A stretch of 36,587 bases of DNA. Origin: a virus (Duplodnaviria; Heunggongvirae; Uroviricota; Caudoviricetes). Positions 2,649 through 36,587 of this stretch are shown piece after piece. The position numbers were made by a program, and so were the translations under genes. Location of the stretch: the IMG/VR virus record IMGVR_UViG_2703718784_000020. One strand, written 5' to 3'. Positions within the stretch are counted from its first letter, which is position 1. Every line of letters begins with the position of its first letter. Below the pieces are notes generated by a model. It did not search any database, had not been told where the DNA came from, and saw only the letters and a program-made list of their open reading frames with translations.

Positions 2649-3758
2649 TCACTCTGTTTCCGCTATCCATTCCGGGATTTTTGCTTCAAGCTCAAGCTGC
2701 GTGGTAAAGCCGCTGTTATCAATGGTGTGCTCGGCTTTTGCAATAATCCAGTCCTGATTGTCGATGTCATTTTTGAAGCCTGTCACCGTGCCATGCATTT
2801 CGGGATAGAGTTCTGCACGTCCACGCGCCAGCGTGATGGAAAATGATGCGGCTCCGCGTTGTAGTTGCTGCCACTTTGCCGCCGCTGCGCGTCTTGCTGC
2901 CTGCTCGTTCTGATAAGTCTTGCGTAACACAAACACATTGCCTTCCGCGCCTTCCATATAATCACCTTCACGGCTGCTGCTTTTCTCCTTTTTGGGTTTT
3001 GGCGGTTTACGGCGTTTCACGCTGACTTTTTTCTTTTTCCCGTAATTAAGATCAAGCCAGTAGGCGCGCACCCCCGTATACGCCTCGCGGTCAGCAATAC
3101 GGAACTGATGGCGATCGCCGCTGCTGCGTGTAATGGCGAACGAGGGCAACGGCTGGCCCTGTGCGTTCACGCCACCACCTGGCATGATGAATAACAGATT
3201 GCCGCTTTTTACCGTGGTGATTGCGCCCAGCATTTCCGCCATGCGCGTAAGGAAGGACATGTCGCTTTCTTCGGTCTGGTCGGCGTGGTCGATTTCGATA
3301 TCCATCAGCATTTCGCTGATTTGCGGTTTCAGACCATACCGATGAGCGATGGCGGATACCACACGCTCAACGGTCACATCATGCCAGGACACCTCACGTT
3401 TAACGTTAAATTCATCCCGAAAATCTGCGCTTCTGGCTGAAACAGTCAGCCTGTCCGGCGGTCCTTCGTGAGCGATTTCATCAACAATGTAAGTGCCTTT
3501 TTCTGTCAGCGGTTCTCCTTTCCAGCCAATGAGAACCGTCAGGCGCGCGCCCCGTGGCGGTAGCTGCAACTGACCATCCGCATCATCCAGCGTGATGGTG
3601 AGCTGGTCCGCCTCAAATCCCCGGTTGTCGGTCAGTGACAGGCTCATCAGGCGCTCTGCCACGCCTGACAGCGTTTTACCCTCCGCGAGAATATCAAAAT
3701 CCGGCATTTTCACGGGGTCTGTGCCCTGACTGAGCAATTGCATGGTGGTATCGGTCAT
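2649..3758 (-). CDS. D: Tail/baseplate hub protein gpD (late control gene D family)
   Basis: ORF track 2649-3890; the likely start is the ATG at 3758 (MTDTTMQLL...) preceded by GGAGGG; C-terminal region ...ELYPEMHGTVTGFKNDIDNQDWIIAKAEHTIDNSGFTTQLELE typical of phage GPD proteins. Confidence 0.85.
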   Translation of the reverse strand: MTDTTMQLLSQGTDPVKMPDFDILAEGKTLSGVAERLMSLSLTDNRGFEADQLTITLDDADGQLQLPPRGARLTVLIGWKGEPLTEKGTYIVDEIAHEGPPDRLTVSARSADFRDEFNVKREVSWHDVTVERVVSAIAHRYGLKPQISEMLMDIEIDHADQTEESDMSFLTRMAEMLGAITTVKSGNLLFIMPGGGVNAQGQPLPSFAITRSSGDRHQFRIADREAYTGVRAYWLDLNYGKKKKVSVKRRKPPKPKKEKSSSREGDYMEGAEGNVFVLRKTYQNEQAARRAAAAKWQQLQRGAASFSITLARGRAELYPEMHGTVTGFKNDIDNQDWIIAKAEHTIDNSGFTTQLELEAKIPEWIAETE

Positions 3759-3915
3759 CTGTTCCCTCCCTGTGCGGCATGGTCGCATGTGCGTGCGGAG
3801 GGGGGTACTGCTTTTTGTTGTCGCCGTGGCGGGAGAACGGCGCAGGGGTGAGATTACGCGCGTGGTGGGTGATGATTGTTGCCGAATCATTTAACGGATA
3901 CAAGGGGCTGAAGCT
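3759..3915. promoter_or_regulatory. Divergent intergenic region between D (minus) and FI (plus); presumed late promoters
   Basis: 157-bp noncoding gap between two divergently oriented late genes; no exact TGT-N12-ACA Ogr box found by eye, so the promoter positions are unresolved. Confidence 0.35.
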
Positions 3916-5100
3916 ATGAGTGAAACTCGTTTTCATGGTGCCCGTGTTACGGAAAATACCGACCTGGTAACAGCGATTAACGATGTTGATTCCAGCGTTA
4001 TCGGTATCGTGGCAACGGCGGATGATGCGGACGCGAAGCTGTTCCCGCTGAACAAGCCTACACTGCTGACCCGCGTCAATGACGTGCTGGGAAAATGCGG
4101 GACAACGGGGACGCTTTATCGTGCGCTTAAGGCCATCGCAGACCAGGTGAGCACAAAGGTGATCGTCGTTCGCGTGGCTGAACACAAAGAAGAAGACGGA
4201 AAGACGCAGGATCAACTGGTTATCGGTGGTTCTGAGGATGACGGCAGCTATACGGGGATGTATGCGCTGCTTGTTGCAGAGCAGGATGAAAGCATCGGAT
4301 ACCGTCCGCGTATTCTGGCCGCGCCGGAGCTGGACACGGAGGCTGTAACAAAATCCCTGTGCGTGATTGCAGGTAAACTGCGCGCGTTTGTGTATGCCTC
4401 ATGTCACGGCTGTAACACGATGGCTGAGGCGATTACCTACCGCCAGAAATTCAACGAACGTGAGGTGATGCTCTTATGGCCGGACTTCATCGCCTACAAC
4501 CCGAAAAGTGGCAAAAACGAAACGTTCCCCGCGCCTGCCTATGCGTGCGGCCTTCGTGCGTACATTGACCATGAGCAGGGATGGCACAAATCACTGTCCA
4601 ACGTTCCGGTTAAAAATGTGCTGGGGATGTCGAGGCATGTGTTCTGGTCGTTGCAGGCCGAAGACAGCGATGCCAACAGCCTCAACAACAAAGAAATCAC
4701 GACCATTATTCGTCGCAATGGGTTCCGCTTCTGGGGCAACCGCACACCGGAAACGAACGCCTACATCTTTGAGGTGTATACCCGAACCGCACAGGTGCTG
4801 GCTGATTCAATTGCGGAAGCGCAGTTTGAAACCATCGACAGTCCACTGACGCCTGCGAACGTGAAGGATGTTATCAGTGCCATCAGGGCAAAACTGGATT
4901 CACTGGTTACTGCCGGGAAACTGATTGGCGCGGAGTGCTGGTATGACGTGGTGGATAACAGCACCACGGATTTACGTCAGGGGCGTGTGCGTATTCGCTA
5001 CAAATATACGCCCGTTCCGCCACTGGAAGACATGGAGCTTTACCAGACGTTTACTGATGAATACTTTGAACCCGCATTTGCGGTGCTGGGAGGTGCCTGA
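3916..5100 (+). CDS. FI: Contractile tail sheath protein gpFI
   Basis: 394-aa product, size and sequence character of P2 FI sheath protein; stop overlaps the FII start (TGATG). Confidence 0.9.
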   Translation: MSETRFHGARVTENTDLVTAINDVDSSVIGIVATADDADAKLFPLNKPTLLTRVNDVLGKCGTTGTLYRALKAIADQVSTKVIVVRVAEHKEEDGKTQDQLVIGGSEDDGSYTGMYALLVAEQDESIGYRPRILAAPELDTEAVTKSLCVIAGKLRAFVYASCHGCNTMAEAITYRQKFNEREVMLLWPDFIAYNPKSGKNETFPAPAYACGLRAYIDHEQGWHKSLSNVPVKNVLGMSRHVFWSLQAEDSDANSLNNKEITTIIRRNGFRFWGNRTPETNAYIFEVYTRTAQVLADSIAEAQFETIDSPLTPANVKDVISAIRAKLDSLVTAGKLIGAECWYDVVDNSTTDLRQGRVRIRYKYTPVPPLEDMELYQTFTDEYFEPAFAVLGGA

Positions 5101-9587: not shown

Positions 9588-10826
9588 TTATAAAGAATGG
9601 CTACTTTCTAATTCTGGGTTTCTGGATCTATTTTTACAACCTAAATCCGAGTGGTAATCCGGTATATCGTTTGTCAAATCTTGTTTGATAGCATTAATTA
9701 AGAGCATTATGTCGAATTTATGCATATCGTCGCCCCCTTCAGACCTTAGATGTTCGGATGTGGTGAGTTGAGTCGCTAATTTGCTGTTTGGCCCCCATAC
9801 AATATTATTTTCGAATTTTCCTTCATGCATTCTGTTATTATATATACAGTATTGTCTAATGTTTAATGCACTGGCTAAATGTACAATGGCTGTATCTACA
9901 GTTATAACAAAATCAGCATGGCGAACCAATGCAAATGAACATCCGGCATCAGAAAATGGAGATAGAGACACATTATCCAATCCATTGTGATTAATCTGTT
10001 TTCCCATATTAAAAACTATTGTGTGATATCCCTTAAGGTTATTGAGGTAAGCTAGTACTTTGTTTATCTGTTCATCAGATAAGGTTCTGCTATTCTGAGA
10101 GCCATAAGGGTTAAATATAACTAATTTTTTGTTTTTCTTCCTGAATTCATTTGCAACAATATTTGCTGGTTCATATATTTTGTTGTCAAAATTAAGCGCT
10201 GCAGCATAATTATTATTTTTTATCTTTAGTAAAGATAAAACTTTTTTCATTCTTTCAGATGTGTGAATGGAACGATTATCGATTATATTTGTATCAAAAA
10301 TAGTTACGGCAGGATGATTAAAACAGATAGAGTGTTTAGGTCTAAGTAAATGTAGTGTTTGCAATCTGGTTATCGCTGTGTTATCAAAATTTGAGAAGTC
10401 AACAACAAGATCTACATTCAGTTTTTTTATCTTTGCTTTTAGTTCGTTAAATTTATTTTTCTCGTAAGATATAAAGGCATCCACGCCAACAATATCAGTA
10501 AAGAGGAATGATACTCTTGAAGGTGCTATCACATATACCACCATACCGGATTTTTGAAGTTGTTTAATAAACCCTGAGGTAACGATGCCGTCACCAATGG
10601 CTTGCATGTGCATGAAAATGCACACTGTTTTATAACTATCCGGCTGTAATGATGTTTTCCTTCTGTATCGCATTTTTAGAAATGCCAGTCTGGCCTTCGT
10701 CTTTATCTTTTTTGTTTTAATATTTCGCTGTCTGTTAAGCTGTTTTAATGATGAAATAACATTCATAATGGTACCCTGAAATTCCAAATCACACATGTCA
10801 TCCGAAATGAGCAGGGTACTATACAA
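9588..10826 (-). CDS. Glycosyltransferase family 9 (ADP-heptose:LPS heptosyltransferase-like) cargo gene at the Z/fun position
   Basis: Visibly AT-rich ORF; N-terminal fold motif CIFMHMQAIGDGIV and C-terminal motif FVITVDTAIVHLASALNIRQYCIY...WGP resemble GT9 signatures; the ORF-track start is a TTG, the first ATG in frame is at 10766. Confidence 0.65.
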   Translation of the reverse strand: MYSTLLISDDMCDLEFQGTIMNVISSLKQLNRQRNIKTKKIKTKARLAFLKMRYRRKTSLQPDSYKTVCIFMHMQAIGDGIVTSGFIKQLQKSGMVVYVIAPSRVSFLFTDIVGVDAFISYEKNKFNELKAKIKKLNVDLVVDFSNFDNTAITRLQTLHLLRPKHSICFNHPAVTIFDTNIIDNRSIHTSERMKKVLSLLKIKNNNYAAALNFDNKIYEPANIVANEFRKKNKKLVIFNPYGSQNSRTLSDEQINKVLAYLNNLKGYHTIVFNMGKQINHNGLDNVSLSPFSDAGCSFALVRHADFVITVDTAIVHLASALNIRQYCIYNNRMHEGKFENNIVWGPNSKLATQLTTSEHLRSEGGDDMHKFDIMLLINAIKQDLTNDIPDYHSDLGCKNRSRNPELESSHSL

Positions 10827-26458: not shown

Positions 26459-27418
26459 TTACTCCTTGTCCATTGCGTACAGCCCATTAACCAGAGCAAA
26501 CTGTGGCACCCCGTCCGCGATGAAAGTCGCATTAACTCCGCAGGCTTCGCGGATAGCGGGTGCCACAATCTCCGCTCCTCCACCTACAACCATCACCCGC
26601 CCGTAACCCGAAAAACCCGCCAGCGCGCGGATCACGCGTTGTTTCAGTGTTTCTTCCTTTTCACGAATAACCGCCATCAGGCTGGCGTAATGTGCGTCAT
26701 TGTGGATGTGCTGGCGCAGCCAGGCTTCATCGTGGCGATGTTCGATAATGGTATTGGCGATGTGGTGACTGGTACGCATACCGTTAGTGGCCATCACCGA
26801 CAGTACGGCATCGGCCATCAGAGAAACGCCTACGTGTGGATCGCAAAATACCTGGCTGATACCTGCCAGCTGCCCCTGAACCTTTGCCACATCCAGCGTG
26901 GTTCCGCCTAAATCCACAATCAGCAGGGATTCAAACGGACTCATGTCAGCCAGTGCCTTAAAGCCAGCCGGAATGGATTCAGGCATAACCCGCACGTTAC
27001 GGATAGTGAATGCTTCGCCGTTCTGGTACTCCACCGGGCGCATAACGTTCGCTTTTTTGCGGTTGATGTTGGCCATGTCCGGCTGTGCGTTTGTGTCGAA
27101 ATACTCGCTCAGTGGCAGGGTGACAACCACATCCACTTCCTGTGGTGTGATGCCTGATTTGACCAGCGCGTGATGAATGGCAATTACATTCACATCGCTG
27201 TACTGGTATTGCGTGTCGGTCGTCTGGACAAAGCGATCGCTGACCGGATCAAAACCATAGCGCACGCCATCAAGCATGTAGTTCGCGGGCTGCGTGCCAC
27301 CGAACGGCGCAGACCATTCCGACTTGAAGCTGTTCGGGCTGATGGCGTTGCGGCGTTCGCCGTTCTCAGTCCATGCCAGCTTGATGTTGGTGGAGCCGTC
27401 GTCGATACAAATTTTCAT
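26459..27418 (-). CDS. parM: ParM/StbA-like actin-type segregation ATPase
   Basis: 319-aa product MKICIDDGSTNIKLAW...ISPNSF...YSDVNVIAIHHAL...VMPESIPAGF...SLLIVDLGGTTLDV...GVSL...MVVGGGAEI closely parallels my recollection of plasmid R1 ParM along its whole length. Confidence 0.85.
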   Translation of the reverse strand: MKICIDDGSTNIKLAWTENGERRNAISPNSFKSEWSAPFGGTQPANYMLDGVRYGFDPVSDRFVQTTDTQYQYSDVNVIAIHHALVKSGITPQEVDVVVTLPLSEYFDTNAQPDMANINRKKANVMRPVEYQNGEAFTIRNVRVMPESIPAGFKALADMSPFESLLIVDLGGTTLDVAKVQGQLAGISQVFCDPHVGVSLMADAVLSVMATNGMRTSHHIANTIIEHRHDEAWLRQHIHNDAHYASLMAVIREKEETLKQRVIRALAGFSGYGRVMVVGGGAEIVAPAIREACGVNATFIADGVPQFALVNGLYAMDKE

Positions 27419-27454
27419 GTCGTTTTTCCTTATGTTGATTAATTAATCGGTTAC

Positions 27455-27544
27455 AGGATTTTTAAATCCCGCTTTTGCCTGTTTTGTGCGCGCTTCATAT
27501 ATCGCGGCACGTTTTTTGCTCATTTACGGGATTTGTGAATCCCG
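27455..27544. promoter_or_regulatory. parC-like site: two copies of an imperfect palindrome flanking a promoter-like AT-rich core
   Basis: CAGGATTTTTAAATCCCGC (27455-27473) and CGGGATTTGTGAATCCCG (27527-27544) lie either side of GCGCGCTTCATATATCGCGG, directly upstream of parM. Confidence 0.5.
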
Positions 27545-28172
27545 TTTCTGTCTGTTTTTTGTTTCCACTGGTCAGGCTACCCCGCAGCAGGTCTGCTTTG
27601 CGGCTGGCGCGTTCAGTGGTTTCAGTGATTCTCTGTGCGTGCTCTGCGTCGCGGATGGCGCGCAGCATGTCAGAAAGCACGGTAACGGGTGTTTTCATGG
27701 TGTTCTGGTCCTGCTGAAGTGTGGATGCCAGGCGTGCGGCGGCTTCAGGGTCTGATGCCCCCAGCTGTGCCAGATAGCTGGCGACCGGGTTATGGCGGAT
27801 CTCCGTGCTGCTTACGCCATGATTACGGCTCAGGCGCTGCCAGAGCTGCGTGATTCGGCTGTCCGGGCGGGTATCCGGTTTGCGTACAATTTCAAATCCC
27901 TGCGGTGCAATGATGCTGCCGTCAACGTACAGACTGCCGCCCCGTAACAGGTGCTGCATCTGTTGTTCACCGATATGCAGGCCGAGAGATTCAGCAGACT
28001 CCCGCCATTCTTTAGCGAGTAATTCGTGGTTATCAGGCAAAGGCCGCTGCTGTTTGCGGCTCTGTGTCCAGCTCTGCATTTCATCACTGCTGTTTTTTGC
28101 CTGTTTGTCACGAAGCGAACGCATCAGCGCCCGGCGTTCGTGCCGTTTCAGTGAGCGCATCCATTCGTTCAC
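27495..28172 (-). CDS. Hypothetical protein; reading frame continuous with gene A across a single TAA
   Basis: 225-aa ORF (track start is a GTG); the 89 codons between the gene A stop at 28440-28442 and this start are also open in the same frame. Confidence 0.4.
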   Translation of the reverse strand: MNEWMRSLKRHERRALMRSLRDKQAKNSSDEMQSWTQSRKQQRPLPDNHELLAKEWRESAESLGLHIGEQQMQHLLRGGSLYVDGSIIAPQGFEIVRKPDTRPDSRITQLWQRLSRNHGVSSTEIRHNPVASYLAQLGASDPEAAARLASTLQQDQNTMKTPVTVLSDMLRAIRDAEHAQRITETTERASRKADLLRGSLTSGNKKQTETGFTNPVNEQKTCRDI

Positions 28173-33258: not shown

Positions 33259-33609
33259 TTATAAATCAGCCTGTTTAATAAAACTTTGCCCGCGAAGCAG
33301 ACGATCAACCGTGCGAAGTGCTTCGTATAATGTGAAATCCTGCCCGAAGTGATTGTCGCCGCAGTTCAATGCAAAAATGCGGTTTCCGGTAAACGGATTG
33401 CGTGGGCATTTGTGGACCACGATTCCAGCTTTCTCAATCAGCCAGGCATGCTCGCCGATTTGTTTTACAGCGTGGCCATCCGGTGTTGCGTGCGTCTCGT
33501 TCAGGTTATAGCGACTGTTACTACGTGATGCACTGGTAGCGACGTGGTGTACATGGCGTTCTACGCCATTACGAAATTTGGAGTATGGATTATTAGCGTT
33601 TTTTTTCAT
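33259..33609 (-). CDS. Hypothetical early protein with Cys/His cluster
   Basis: 116-aa ORF; segment HKCPRNPFTGNRIFALNCGDNHFG may bind metal. Confidence 0.45.
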   Translation of the reverse strand: MKKNANNPYSKFRNGVERHVHHVATSASRSNSRYNLNETHATPDGHAVKQIGEHAWLIEKAGIVVHKCPRNPFTGNRIFALNCGDNHFGQDFTLYEALRTVDRLLRGQSFIKQADL

Positions 33610-33630
33610 GATGGTGCTCTGTTCATTGTT

Positions 33631-33834
33631 TTAGCTGTTAGCCAAAGCGTCTTTTAACATCGCCACAAGGTTTACTTCAGGCTTTTCCATTTTGGCGCGT
33701 TTGGGGCGGATAATAATTCGACCGTCAGCCAACATCTTTTTGCACGTATTAAGAGGGATACCTGTTATCTCTGCATATTTCTGCAGGGATACATAGGGGG
33801 CATTCACATTGATATTGATGGTTATACCTGACAT
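33631..33834 (-). CDS. Small helix-turn-helix DNA-binding protein (Cox/excisionase-like)
   Basis: 67-aa product; segment PYVSLQKYAEITGIPLNTCKKMLADGRI resembles the HTH of P2 Cox-type proteins; second gene of the early operon. Confidence 0.5.
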   Translation of the reverse strand: MSGITININVNAPYVSLQKYAEITGIPLNTCKKMLADGRIIIRPKRAKMEKPEVNLVAMLKDALANS

Positions 33835-33850
33835 CCCACTAGCCTCCTGA

Positions 33851-34057
33851 TCAGGAAGATTTGTTTTGTTCTTTCTGGGTTAGCTCTAGGCCGCGAAGGA
33901 AGATCATGCGCGCCATGTTAGAGGATGAGCGTTGTTCTTTAGCTGCCATTTCATCAATGACGGCTCGCTCCTCGAGGGACAGCCGAAGTGCCAGTCTTGG
34001 ACCTGTGGCGGTGTTACGCGGAATGCGTGATCTGGTATCGTGAAGAACTTGTTTCAT
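33851..34057 (-). CDS. Ribbon-helix-helix DNA-binding protein, first gene of the early (lytic) operon
   Basis: 68-aa product; PRLALRLSLEERAVIDEMAAKEQRSSSNMARMIF fits the beta-strand then helix pattern of CopG/Arc proteins; divergent from the repressor gene. Confidence 0.55.
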   Translation of the reverse strand: MKQVLHDTRSRIPRNTATGPRLALRLSLEERAVIDEMAAKEQRSSSNMARMIFLRGLELTQKEQNKSS

Positions 34058-34117
34058 AGTGGTATATTGTGATCATCTAATAGCTCGTGAAATCATTTTG
34101 GTATCAAAAAAGATACC
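34034..34117. promoter_or_regulatory. Immunity switch region: repeated TGGTAT half-sites and inverted repeat GGTATC-A6-GATACC
   Basis: TGGTAT occurs at 34034, 34060 and 34100; perfect inverted repeat GGTATCAAAAAAGATACC at 34100-34117, 15 bp upstream of the repressor start; lies between divergent repressor and early genes. Confidence 0.45.
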
Positions 34118-34132
34118 TGTCAAGGTTTTTGT

Positions 34133-34537
34133 ATGAAAAATGATATTGGTCAGCGGTTGCGTGAGGAAAGGGAAAGATTGGGACTTAGTCAAGTTGCCAT
34201 GAGCGACATTGGTGGAGTCAAAAAGCTAACTCAGCTTAGATATGAGAAAGGAGATAGCTTTCCTGATGCTGCGTATTTGGCAGCGCTGTCTCGTTTTGGC
34301 CTTGATGTTCAGTATGTTGTGTTGGGAATTCACTCACCTGAAACTTATAACGATGATGAGCAGGAGTTGATTACTCGCTTTCGAGCAGCTTCGTTAGATG
34401 TGAAAAACGCGGTGATTGGGGCTTTAAAAGGTGCGATCAGTGAAAAGGAAACTCAGCCATCAGGACGTGAGTTAAATATTTCTGGTGGTAATAACCGTAT
34501 CGCTGGTCGTGACTATAACGAAACTAAGGGTAGGTGA
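34133..34537 (+). CDS. Immunity repressor, XRE-family helix-turn-helix
   Basis: 134-aa product; N-terminal IGQRLREERERLGLSQVAMSDIGGVKKLTQLRYEKG is a typical Cro/C1-type HTH; transcribed toward int as for the P2 C gene. Confidence 0.75.
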   Translation: MKNDIGQRLREERERLGLSQVAMSDIGGVKKLTQLRYEKGDSFPDAAYLAALSRFGLDVQYVVLGIHSPETYNDDEQELITRFRAASLDVKNAVIGALKGAISEKETQPSGRELNISGGNNRIAGRDYNETKGR

Positions 34538-34552
34538 TAGTAGGGAGGTGAC

Positions 34553-35203
34553 ATGGCCGTCAACTCAAACGGTTCAAACAATCGCGTTGCTGGGCGTGAT
34601 TTTCACGAAAAGAATATTCAGATAGAGCGATATGATGGTTCTCATACCGTCAATATCGCAATCCCTTCGAATAATGATGATGACGATCGCCCTTTGCTTA
34701 AGGCTCAGCGTAAGGAGCTAAATAGCTTGGTTGCTGCTATTGCAGAAGCTAGCAATACTGAAGCGTTTATTATTTGGCAAAAAGTACATGCGGAGATTGG
34801 TGTAGCTGGTATTGATGATATGACAGTAAATCAATATAAAACAGCGGAGAGTTTTCTGCATGCAATGCTTGAGCGATGTAAAGATCATGATGCCTGTAAG
34901 GCTCTTGTAAGTTTATTACTACGTAACAGTGAAGACTGTGGACTTCGACAAAAACTTCTGCGGTATTGCCATATCAATTTCGGTACAGGACGTTTAAACG
35001 ATCTTACTCGTTCTCAGTTACAGTCTGCATTGTCGTGGTTAGAGCAACAATCGGCATCAAGCCACACAGAGAGTTCGACCTTACCAGAAGTCCGACTTCG
35101 TGCTTCAGAATTAATCCGACTTTATCCAAAAGAAATAATATTCTTTATCTGCGTAGGGGTTTTGGTAGGCGGTGTCATTTCTAGGGCGTTTTTTAATTTG
35201 TAA
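34553..35203 (+). CDS. Tail-anchored membrane protein of unknown function (lysogeny-operon cargo)
   Basis: 216-aa ORF 15 bp after the repressor gene with RBS GGGAGG; single C-terminal hydrophobic helix IIFFICVGVLVGGVISRAFF; AT-rich. Confidence 0.55.
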   Translation: MAVNSNGSNNRVAGRDFHEKNIQIERYDGSHTVNIAIPSNNDDDDRPLLKAQRKELNSLVAAIAEASNTEAFIIWQKVHAEIGVAGIDDMTVNQYKTAESFLHAMLERCKDHDACKALVSLLLRNSEDCGLRQKLLRYCHINFGTGRLNDLTRSQLQSALSWLEQQSASSHTESSTLPEVRLRASELIRLYPKEIIFFICVGVLVGGVISRAFFNL

Positions 35204-35232
35204 TCTTACTTGAGCTAAATTGAGGTAATGAT

Positions 35233-35580
35233 ATGAAAGTAAAAAAGGTTCAACTATTAGTTACTTTTTTATCTATGTTTTCTTTTTCCGCCGTCGCAAT
35301 GCCTTTTAAAACTATTGAACGTGAGAGTTTCAATGGGGTATGGCCATTTAATACTGATGAGGTTCAATTACAGTGTCTTGATGGTAATCCTTATGTGATG
35401 AATTTTGACGATAATAAGTTATATGCACTTACAGGCTTGGCTCGAATAAAAGGTAAAACATTTGGTGGGTTACCGTTAGATAACAATAATCCATTTTGGC
35501 TAGATAATGATGCCGCCCCAGGGTTAAAAAAGAGTCTGGGGGATGTCACTAAGGCTGCATTTGATTTATGTGATAAGTAA
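35233..35580 (+). CDS. Small secreted/periplasmic protein of unknown function (lysogeny-operon cargo)
   Basis: 115-aa ORF with N-terminal signal peptide MKVKKVQLLVTFLSMFSFSAVA; visibly AT-rich; RBS GAGGTAA. Confidence 0.55.
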   Translation: MKVKKVQLLVTFLSMFSFSAVAMPFKTIERESFNGVWPFNTDEVQLQCLDGNPYVMNFDDNKLYALTGLARIKGKTFGGLPLDNNNPFWLDNDAAPGLKKSLGDVTKAAFDLCDK

Positions 35581-35585
35581 CTAAA

Positions 35586-36587
35586 ATGTCGGTTCGTAAG
35601 ATTCCATCAGGTAAATGGCTTTGCGAATGTTATCCCTACGGGGCATCGGGAAAACGCATTCGTAAACAGTTTGCGACAAAAAGTGAGGCGCTCTCTTATG
35701 AGCGCCGTTTAATGAATAGTAGAGTTGGAGACGAGTTTCAAGATGGTTCTGGTCCTCGTCTTTCTGAGTTGATTGCTCGTTGGTTTGAGATGTACGGTAA
35801 AACCTTGTCCTCTGGTGCAGAGCGCAAAGTCAAACTTGAGGCGATTTGTTCCAGGCTGGGAGATCCATTTGCTTCTCAGTTTGACAAAAATATGTTTGCC
35901 ACTTATCGGGAAAGAAGGCTATCAGGAGAATGGAATCCCAAGGGGAAGAAAAAACTTAGTGAAGCAACCGTTAATCGCGAGCAGTCATATCTACATGCTG
36001 TTTTTGCCGAACTGAAGCGCCTTGGGGAGTGGTCTGGTGAAAACCCCCTGACTGGTATTCGCAAGTTTCGTGAGGAAGAAAAGGAACTGGCGTTTCTGTA
36101 TGTAGATGAGATTGAACGCCTTCTGATTGCGTGTGATGAGTCACGGAATAAAGATTTGGGGGTTGTTGTCCGTATTGGGCTTGCGACTGGTGCTCGGTGG
36201 AGTGAAGCAGAAGGATTAAAGCAATCTCAAGTACTGCCCGGTCGAATCACATTTGTTAAAACTAAAGGAAAGAAGAACCGCACTGTACCGATTTCACCTC
36301 AATTGCAGGCTATGCTTCCCAAAAAACGAGGAGCGCTATTTTCACCATGTTATGAGGCTTTTGACGCTGCAATTAAGAGAGCGAAGATCGAGCTTCCTGA
36401 TGGGCAATTAACTCATGTGCTACGTCACACGTTTGCCAGTCATTTTATGATGCGGGGCGGAAATATTCTTGTGTTGCAAAAAATACTGGGGCATAGCGAT
36501 ATAAAAATGACTATGCGTTATGCGCATTTTGCTCCAGGTCATTTAGAGGCTGCTGTTGAATTGAACCCTTTTGACAATAGAGGGTAA
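35586..36587 (+). CDS. int: Tyrosine integrase (P2 Int family)
   Basis: 333-aa product with catalytic residues in ARWSEA (Arg), HVLRHTFASH (His-x-x-Arg) and MTMRYAHF (Tyr); N-terminus KWLCECYPYGASGKRIRKQF typical of P2-type integrases; the stop codon is the last triplet of the window. Confidence 0.9.
   Translation: MSVRKIPSGKWLCECYPYGASGKRIRKQFATKSEALSYERRLMNSRVGDEFQDGSGPRLSELIARWFEMYGKTLSSGAERKVKLEAICSRLGDPFASQFDKNMFATYRERRLSGEWNPKGKKKLSEATVNREQSYLHAVFAELKRLGEWSGENPLTGIRKFREEEKELAFLYVDEIERLLIACDESRNKDLGVVVRIGLATGARWSEAEGLKQSQVLPGRITFVKTKGKKNRTVPISPQLQAMLPKKRGALFSPCYEAFDAAIKRAKIELPDGQLTHVLRHTFASHFMMRGGNILVLQKILGHSDIKMTMRYAHFAPGHLEAAVELNPFDNRG

Follow-up and report, generated by a model that had tools for sequence, protein, structure and literature searches.

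The virus record IMGVR_UViG_2703718784_000020 of IMG/VR, a stretch of 36,587 nucleotides which is called the window in the following, contains a P2-like (Peduoviridae) prophage flanked by the glyW-cysT-leuZ tRNA cluster and by yecA of E. coli. The right end of this prophage is formed by four consecutive open reading frames (ORFs) on the plus strand. They encode an XRE repressor with a helix-turn-helix (HTH) domain, a protein of 216 amino acids (ORF216), a protein of 115 amino acids (ORF115), and the integrase (int), and are separated by gaps of 15, 29, and 5 nt. An initial annotation, made from the sequence alone, had taken the genes of ORF216 and ORF115 as an AT-rich insert between the immunity repressor and int, coding for envelope proteins of the lysogen which might serve superinfection exclusion or abortive infection. 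The arrangement of two genes on the same strand with short gaps was borne out by the analysis. The two genes proved to be of different nature, however, ORF216 being a fixed companion of the repressor with which it has a short peptide motif in common, and only ORF115 being an exchangeable add-on.

Layout of the Repressor-Integrase Interval

Good ribosome binding sites had been noted for both genes and were confirmed, with the Shine-Dalgarno sequence GGAGGT located 4 nt before the ATG of ORF216 and GAGG 8 nt before that of ORF115. No terminator-like site was found on the plus strand in the region from 33600 to 36587, and in the GenBank record of Vibrio phage K139 the genes cI-orf2-glo-int are annotated as one lysogenic operon. 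From these two observations the co-transcription of ORF216 and ORF115 with the repressor, as proposed initially, is likely. The GC content of ORF216 (0.41) and ORF115 (0.36) is indeed low as compared to the prophage body (0.53), but the repressor (0.44) and int (0.45) are AT-rich as well. Full-length matches to PHROG families were obtained for both products (E 4e-103 for ORF216 with phrog_5825 and E 4e-39 for ORF115 with phrog_2950), and RefSeq lists them as "hypothetical protein" and "DUF2511 domain-containing protein", respectively. As the repressor and ORF216 lie in the same frame in the window, a read-through product or a fusion of the two was considered. It was ruled out by the stop codons TGA TAG TAG which split the two reading frames, and by the different frames in two other loci (L004 and L005 in the numbering of loci used here).

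The region is found in 599 of 5426 complete E. coli genomes, with at least 80% of the query covered in 516 of them and a match of at least 99% identity in 481. Strains of O145:H28 and O103:H2 are among the carriers. Among 50,697 deposited phage genomes a close homologue occurs only in Escherichia phage 520873 (genus Xuanwuvirus, two records), which is 98% identical across the region studied and in which the gene is unannotated. In NC_049344.1, a record of this phage (L002, 3738–5779), the ORF216 homologue matches in three pieces, annotation is missing for both ORFs, and int appears as two separate coding sequences, which suggests frameshifts or sequencing errors in this record.

In the structural model calculated with AlphaFold2 (AF2) the repressor consists of an HTH domain (residues 1–65), two further helices (residues 74–105), and a disordered tail (residues 105–134). 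Its gene is divergent from cox-like and arc-like genes. Because a good sigma-70-like promoter on the opposite strand points into these Arc-like and Cox-like genes, the HTH gene occupies the place expected for the immunity repressor of a P2-type phage. Judged from its position this promoter is probably the lytic promoter facing the repressor gene. The gene calls in this switch region are in conflict, RefSeq giving a hypothetical ORF of 45 amino acids on the plus strand (L001, 6107–6244), and the phage 520873 record an Arc-like repressor of 68 amino acids on the minus strand (L002, 3052–3258; 33851–34057 in the window). In a prophage of Salmonella enterica subsp. salamae (L157, 767–2801) three XRE repressor paralogues are found in tandem before the Flk_N gene, the homologue of ORF216. 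The paralogue of 124 amino acids probably corresponds to P0295, which bears the motif tail described below, and the tail of the last one (121 amino acids) is decayed.

Family, Fold, and Topology of ORF216

No recognisable motif had been seen initially in either product. This did not hold, since ORF216 belongs to the Flk_N family and ORF115 to the YebY/DUF2511 family. The assignment of ORF216 is based on Pfam PF27202 (named Flk_N), which is precomputed for nearly all of its listed homologues, down to 58% identity, and was scored on these rather than on ORF216 directly, and on the NCBIfam model of Flk (NF007987), which matches residues 37–166 with an E of 8.6e-16. With 58 bits ORF216 stays below the equivalog cut-off of this model (353 bits) and is thus not classified as a Flk orthologue. 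BLASTP aligned residues 45–165, about 120 residues, to Flk of E. coli K-12 with 28% identity and gave a weaker second match to a second stretch of Flk.

The AF2 model of ORF216 shows a disordered head (residues 1–41), a helical domain (residues 46–174, predicted local distance difference test (pLDDT) values of 80–87), a variable linker, and a terminal helix (residues 192–214). The sole hydrophobic segment of the protein is situated at its extreme C-terminus (about residues 187–216), the best 19-residue Kyte-Doolittle window starting at residue 195 with a value of 2.36, and most homologues end 0–2 residues after this segment. No signal peptide was found in ORF216. By this predicted topology it is a tail-anchored inner-membrane protein with a single C-terminal helix and the remainder in the cytoplasm. 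The initial proposal of envelope targeting, with one C-terminal membrane helix for ORF216 and a signal peptide for ORF115, is therewith supported.

A scan of 1.84 billion representatives yielded only 136 relatives of ORF216, comprising forms with the length of Flk (about 320–430 amino acids) and a larger set of about 185–300 amino acids. As judged by the start of the match within each protein, no natural fusion of an HTH domain with Flk_N was seen among these 136 representatives. The first half of Flk_N resembles small helical modules of the phage proteins ORF6C, Bro-N, KilA-N, and RecT (Foldseek E 0.008–2) and the C-terminal domain of Red-beta. In addition weak matches to the anti-repressor PHROGs 245, 2127, and 463 recur in six of 13 distant family members. 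These fold and profile likenesses, all of them below family level, point to protein-binding modules of phage regulators. Pfam matches of ORF216 to zf-P11 and ELYS were below threshold and were taken as spurious. Inspection of the sequence by eye revealed no metalloprotease motif in ORF216, and PADLOC-DB 2.0 gave no match for ORF216 or ORF115 at E values up to 1.

A Fixed Flk_N Gene and a Variable Cargo Slot

About 139 related loci were collected from species-representative genomes, IMG/VR viral contigs, and assemblies. They were gathered via similarity to Flk_N, by which the occurrence of the motif in the presence of Flk_N is well sampled. In these loci the Flk_N gene is located directly 3' of the XRE repressor gene, with a gap of 8–18 nt or an overlap of 4 nt. 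The Flk_N protein is 58–68% identical among relatives as compared to 33–53% for the repressor. ORF216 does not have the scattered occurrence of an accessory gene, as it is present in all loci with the tail-bearing type of repressor. The stretch from Flk_N to int, on the other hand, varies from 322 to 1874 nt and is filled by at least nine unrelated cargo families. These are DUF2511, a small acidic protein of about 100 amino acids, a BRCT-WYL protein, a protein of 291–309 amino acids ending in a BRCT-like region, a coiled-coil tail-anchored protein, a zinc-ribbon protein, a membrane protein of 244 amino acids, and two secreted proteins. The family of 291–309 amino acids is 33% identical to orf2 of Vibrio phage K139 (E 1e-50). 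Cargos of the BRCT-WYL family (L007, L057, L078, and relatives) have 292–295 amino acids and combine a BRCT domain at the N-terminus with a WYL-like region, and together with the K139-orf2-like family they show weak matches to the PADLOC candidate PDC-S48.

When the DNA of the window was compared to that of L054, the mosaic junction coincided with the end of the Flk_N domain and did not separate the repressor from ORF216. Coupling of the anchor or linker of ORF216 to the type of cargo was considered and rejected as mere linkage, the same type of linker being found with different cargos. The pair of repressor and Flk_N is also found in P2-like phages without an adjacent int and in Mu-like prophages, and the module is therefore not specific for P2-like phages. 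In the Mu-like transposable prophages of Pectobacterium and Gilliamella (L151 and L153, about 3001–4031) the pair is situated at the left end, adjoining transposase genes. Repressor homologues which lack the tail (L148–150 of E. coli, L155–156 of Klebsiella) have kept the cargo slot and int and are found without a Flk_N gene. Comparison with related prophages thus leaves of the insertion proposed initially only ORF115, which is exchangeable cargo; relative to its own type of repressor ORF216 is not an insert. The two genes are not one insert, the Flk_N gene being fixed and only ORF115 being an exchangeable add-on.

A Peptide Motif Common to Repressor Tail and ORF216 Head

The tail of the repressor and the head of ORF216 contain copies of the same short motif (Table 1), and this likeness is present in essentially every locus. 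In 80 non-redundant pairs alignment of the tail with its cognate head yielded a median local score of 59 as compared to 19.5 ± 4.4 for shuffled heads. In 57 distinct pairs of DNA sequences the amino acid identity of the two copies was 67%, and 62% of the identical residues were encoded by different codons. The nucleotide differences in these pairs were distributed over the three codon positions as 227/149/451. As identical residues mostly differ in their codons and the differences are concentrated at third positions, selection acts on the peptide and not on the DNA. A DNA repeat, an operator, or a recent gene conversion as the cause of the likeness was ruled out on the same grounds. Both copies of the motif lie in regions with a pLDDT below 50 in the AF2 models.

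The motif co-varies between the two proteins. The type GxxNRxAGRD[YF]xE is shared by the two proteins in Enterobacterales as well as in GC-rich P2-like contigs, the repressors of which can otherwise barely be aligned. Another type, QxFxGxVGQVxxGxIxN, is found in both proteins of a distant group (L140–L147) and of the Mu-like prophages L151 and L153. The partner protein of L140–L147 has 270–300 amino acids with a membrane segment in the middle of the chain, followed by a C-terminal region containing cysteine. In L107, one of the GC-rich P2-like contigs, the tail of the repressor has the variant AGHTF, and the product of the next gene has AGHTY in its head. In L012, a locus of an endosymbiont, a frameshifted Flk_N gene is accompanied by a degenerate tail (AGNNF). 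When IMG/VR was searched with the pattern GxxNR[VTI]AGRD, 215 stretches were obtained, 141 of which encode Flk_N relatives. Taken together these comparisons show, as far as sequences can tell, a functional tie of the repressor tail to the Flk_N protein and their movement as one module between phage types.

Two of the GC-rich P2-like loci (L107 and L131, 3520–3984 in both) encode an extra membrane protein of 154 amino acids, the gene of which is placed after that of the repressor and before the Flk_N gene. The protein begins with the motif, in L107 in the variant AGHTY mentioned above, which matches the repressor tail, and continues with CxxC...CxxC and hydrophobic segments.

ORF115 Is a Predicted Periplasmic Protein of the YebY Family

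ORF115 scores above the gathering threshold of Pfam PF10709 (DUF2511/YebY), with 27.2 bits versus 21 and profile positions 2–87 of 87 covered, and is matched by the chain of E. coli YebY in the Protein Data Bank (PDB) entry 7n0j with an E of 0.0045. Its N-terminal signal peptide (residues 1–22) is MKVKKVQLLVTFLSMFSFSAVA, followed by MP. Tryptophan 37, cysteine 48, and cysteine 113 of ORF115 are found at the same numbering as the conserved tryptophan and the cysteine pair of YebY, for which this tryptophan and a disulfide between cysteine 48 and cysteine 113 have been described (PMC8689200). YebY is located in the periplasm and its fold matches that of the lantibiotic-binding protein MlbQ (PMC8689200). 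When YebY was co-expressed with the inner-membrane copper importer YebZ, a lower accumulation of copper was observed (PMC11923076).

The phage subfamily of YebY-like proteins is small, with 18 clusters at 90% identity. All contexts examined for ORF115 homologues had the order repressor, Flk_N, YebY-like, and int. The copC/copD homologues yobA-yebZ, which mark the YebY of the copper operon, were never found beside them. In Enterobacteriaceae the occurrence of YebY homologues between the genes of a recombinase and of a CI-type repressor has already been noted (PMC8689200). ORF115 is therefore a further member of a known family in a context that is already in print, and not new. As DUF2511 fills the slot in only some lineages, ORF115 has the accessory distribution of a moron gene. 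Accessory genes between repressor and int are already known from K139. The variability of the slot, the K139 order cI-orf2-glo-int, and the orf2 homologue found as alternative cargo place ORF115 in a true cargo slot with a characterised precedent.

Table 1. Position of the features at the right end of the prophage, numbered from the first nucleotide of the window.
Feature	Position	Strand	Remarks
Sigma-70-like promoter TTGACA-17-CAAAAT	34095..34123	-	10/12 matches; points into the Arc-like/Cox-like early operon
XRE-HTH immunity repressor	34133..34537	+	134 aa; Pfam HTH_31/HTH_3, PHROG repressor families, AF2 model
Motif copy of the repressor, LNISGGNNRIAGRDYNE	34472..34522	+	residues 114-130 in the disordered tail, four residues from the stop codon
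Junction of repressor and ORF216	34538..34552	+	15 nt; stop TGA, then TAG TAG, then ribosome binding site GGAGGT
ORF216, predicted tail-anchored, cytoplasm-facing Flk_N-domain protein	34553..35203	+	216 aa; phrog_5825, PF27202 on homologues, NCBIfam Flk, AF2 model
Motif copy of ORF216, VNSNGSNNRVAGRDFHE	34559..34609	+	residues 3-19 in the disordered head (residues 1-41)
Flk_N helical domain of ORF216	34685..35047	+	residues 45-165; NCBIfam, BLASTP, AF2 model
C-terminal transmembrane anchor of ORF216	35132..35203	+	about residues 194-214
ORF115, secreted YebY/DUF2511 protein	35233..35580	+	115 aa; PF10709, PDB 7n0j, phrog_2950, context
Tyrosine integrase, P2-type	35586..36587	+	Int_N and Phage_integrase; RefSeq annotation; starts 5 nt after the ORF115 stop

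Proposed Roles of ORF216 and ORF115

The gene anatomy described above is solid and widespread, and from it we infer a mechanism in which we place about even confidence. ORF216 is suggested to be a membrane-tethered partner of the repressor which is coupled to it by the motif, acts on the lysogeny switch, and belongs to the core of the immunity module, while ORF115 is suggested to be an independent periplasmic cargo, most likely a conversion or exclusion factor. The core distribution of the Flk_N gene, its conservation above that of the repressor, the co-varying motif, and its absence together with tail-less repressors argue for ORF216 as a core component of the immunity module rather than a moron. 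According to this proposal ORF216 would be made from the repressor transcript and be anchored at the cytoplasmic face of the inner membrane. The shared motif of about 17 residues would couple the two proteins physically, either by a head-to-tail association of both motifs of the beta type or by competition of both motifs for one site on the helical domain. In either case a fraction of the repressor would be retained or controlled at the membrane, with ORF216 as an anti-repressor-like or sensor-like modulator of the lysogeny switch rather than a barrier to other phages. In the distant group (L140–L147) sensing could be the task of the region that follows the membrane segment. Membrane-anchored anti-sigma factors offer an analogy for the architecture of repressor and ORF216. 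The predicted fold likenesses fit an anti-repressor-like role of ORF216. The repressor might be sequestered, stabilised, or destroyed by its partner. For ORF115, which would be present as a YebY-fold protein in the periplasm of the lysogen and act on a component of the inner membrane as YebY does on YebZ, the best guess by analogy is a conversion or exclusion factor, as suggested by the slot, by Glo of K139, and by the action of YebY on an inner-membrane transporter.

Several observations weigh against this role of ORF216. A protein made constitutively together with the repressor would be an odd anti-repressor unless it is gated. A membrane protein co-expressed with the repressor is the classical layout of an exclusion system, as in rexAB of lambda. 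AF2 leaves both copies of the motif unfolded. Since the two types of the motif correspond to separate clades, the co-variation is partly shared ancestry, and as the loci were gathered via Flk_N, the rule that Flk_N is lacking where the tail is lacking rests on two repressor families.

The same layout could also mean, as proposed initially, that both proteins are envelope effectors of superinfection exclusion or abortive infection in the lysogen. ORF216 would in this case block DNA entry or kill the infected cell at the inner membrane, and the motif would only keep this effector silent or tie it to immunity, much as in a toxin-antitoxin pair. The position in the lysogenic operon together with the envelope targeting, Glo of K139 at the equivalent place, the matches of neighbouring cargo to the candidate defence models PDC-S48 and BRCT-WYL, and weak matches of the repressor HTH to XRE models of the antitoxin type are in favour of this explanation, which we nevertheless consider rather unlikely for the pair as a whole. 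ORF216 is core and not variable, it is conserved above the repressor, and it persists with the repressor in Mu-like and GC-rich P2-like phages amid other surroundings. Furthermore the repressor tail copies the head of its partner instead of complementing it, and PADLOC gave no match. Exclusion or conversion is plausible for ORF115 in its variable slot with at least nine cargo families, and an inserted exclusion gene is a poor fit for the conserved, motif-linked ORF216. Amyloid signalling of the Bab/Agp (BASS11) kind follows the same genomic logic, with one motif placed C-terminally in one product and N-terminally in that of the adjacent gene (bioRxiv 10.1101/2024.11.07.622273; bioRxiv 10.1101/2020.01.06.895854), and the motif of repressor and ORF216 could be a templating beta-motif of this sort. 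Nucleation of the ORF216 head, triggered by a signal at the inner membrane, would make the repressor tails co-assemble, and the repressor would be removed in an all-or-none manner, yielding an induction independent of RecA. A motif of about 17–20 residues rich in glycine and asparagine with alternating hydrophobic residues in disordered termini would suit such templating, as would the occurrence of the motif at the N-terminus of a third type of protein, the 154-amino acid product of L107 and L131. The partner domains, however, are not a sensor of the NLR/STAND type and an effector of the Bell type, the motif contains a conserved charged pair of arginine and aspartate, and AF2 predicts no beta-structure for it, which makes amyloid-like signalling improbable.

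The location of the motif in disordered segments at either terminus would likewise be expected of a recognition tag, read in both proteins by a host protease or chaperone, with the head of ORF216 as a decoy or competitor setting the turnover of the repressor. In the motif, the cores V-A-G and V-A-A-G seem to resemble a cleavage site of the LexA type. The type of the motif differs, however, between clades in the same or related hosts, for which co-evolving partners are a better fit than a fixed host reader, and repressors without the tail are also without Flk_N; a common tag is therefore given little credence. It is still harder to believe that the two proteins simply do what their relatives do, that is, ORF216 acting as Flk on the flagellar type III export switch and ORF115 as YebY in copper import, with the prophage carrying spare copies. 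Homology to Flk and YebY is what such a role would predict, but the score of ORF216 is far below the Flk cut-off, a single Flk_N unit stands against two matching stretches in Flk of K-12, and ORF216 is strictly linked to a phage repressor. Close homologues of ORF216 are moreover abundant in Klebsiella pneumoniae, one cluster being found on 754 contigs. As this species has no flagella, a flagellar role of ORF216 is unlikely. The homologues of ORF115 occur only in the prophage slot and never next to yobA-yebZ. The initial annotation had named homology to a characterised housekeeping protein as evidence against its proposal, and with Flk and YebY such homology does formally exist. Because it is remote (28% identity with Flk, E 0.0045 with the YebY structure) and each phage subfamily is found in a fixed context of its own, a phage-specific role of both proteins is left standing.

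Comparison with Known Systems

Flk (RflH, "Fluke") of Salmonella and E. coli has the Flk_N helical domain in common with ORF216 and is likewise a cytoplasmic protein with a single C-terminal membrane anchor (PMC13344023). It has 331–333 amino acids with two stretches matching the ORF216 domain and lacks a head of the AGRD type, whereas ORF216 consists of one unit with a motif-bearing head. The gene of Flk is chromosomal, between pdxB and yfcJ, and its product acts on the flagellar export switch, whereas ORF216 is always found downstream of the phage repressor. YebY, encoded by yobA-yebZ-yebY of E. coli, and MlbQ have the DUF2511 fold family, the signal peptide, the tryptophan, and the cysteine pair in common with ORF115; differences are the low similarity and the absence of copC/copD neighbours of ORF115.

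The closest precedent for the gene order is Vibrio phage K139, also a member of Peduoviridae, in which accessory genes are found between repressor and int on one strand as in the window. Glo is annotated in its GenBank record as a periplasmic protein involved in phage exclusion, and the same role is described in PMC4870250. In sister prophages the slot may instead be filled by the homologue of K139 orf2. K139 differs by its long repressor of the CI type without the motif and by the absence of a Flk_N gene. Homology of ORF115 to Glo was considered and none was found in sequence; the two proteins are unrelated at this level, and Glo has no homologue here.

The pairs Bab/Agp (BASS11) and NLR/Bell resemble the pair of repressor and ORF216 by a short motif common to adjacent products, C-terminal in one and N-terminal in its neighbour, and Bab/Agp is a defence system in a prophage region of E. 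coli (bioRxiv 10.1101/2024.11.07.622273). These systems combine a sensor (TPR/PIN or NLR) with a small pore-forming effector and lead to cell death, whereas the pair described here combines a DNA-binding repressor with a tail-anchored helical protein. The anti-repressors of the Ant/Bro/KilA/ORF6C type contain helical modules weakly but repeatedly similar to the first half of Flk_N, below family thresholds. These anti-repressors are soluble and usually come from a separate gene, often controlled by LexA, whereas ORF216 is membrane-anchored and probably part of the operon of the repressor itself. With rexAB of lambda and gp15 of HK97, examples are known of envelope proteins which a lysogen makes along with the repressor or from genes next to it. 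Ltp of Streptococcus phage TP-J34 is a further envelope protein of this kind (PMC3952083). No sequence relation of these proteins to ORF216 or ORF115 was found, and their genes are accessory, whereas ORF216 is core to its type of repressor.

Significance

Roughly every tenth complete E. coli genome contains the module, Shiga-toxin-producing strains of O145 and O103 being among them, and it is also present in many prophages of Klebsiella, Serratia, Enterobacter, and others. In literature searches on the protein accessions, on Flk_N/PF27202, and on membrane-bound anti-repressors, nothing was found on a pairing of an XRE repressor with a tail-anchored Flk_N protein or on a co-varying terminal motif. 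Prophage induction is known to proceed by RecA-mediated cleavage of the repressor or by soluble anti-repressors. If a repressor is indeed coupled to a membrane partner by a shared peptide, this would be a new input route into the lysogeny switch, and it would give a first hint of a role of the Flk_N domain outside flagellar assembly. Should the amyloid-like explanation be correct, amyloid signalling would be extended from cell-death effectors to the control of transcription factors. The slot before int is, in addition, a compact and easily mined site for cargo expressed in the lysogen, some of it resembling candidate defence genes.

Other Features of the Window

Within positions 1–1002 of the window three tRNA genes, tRNA-Gly(gcc), tRNA-Cys, and tRNA-Leu(taa), come after the 3' portion of pgsA. 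The insertion site of the prophage is flanked by this tRNA cluster and by yecA. On the minus strand at 9588–10826 an ORF of 412 amino acids with a glycosyltransferase family 9 (heptosyltransferase) domain (26.7 bits) adjoins the tail-fibre genes at a cargo position of P2. It showed no PADLOC match and is a candidate for a conversion gene modifying lipopolysaccharide. The early region near the replication gene encodes on the minus strand (26459–28172) a full-length actin-like segregation protein of the ParM/StbA type (275 + 230 bits), which is adjoined by an ORF of 225 amino acids without a family match. Such a segregation protein is unexpected in an integrating P2-like prophage.

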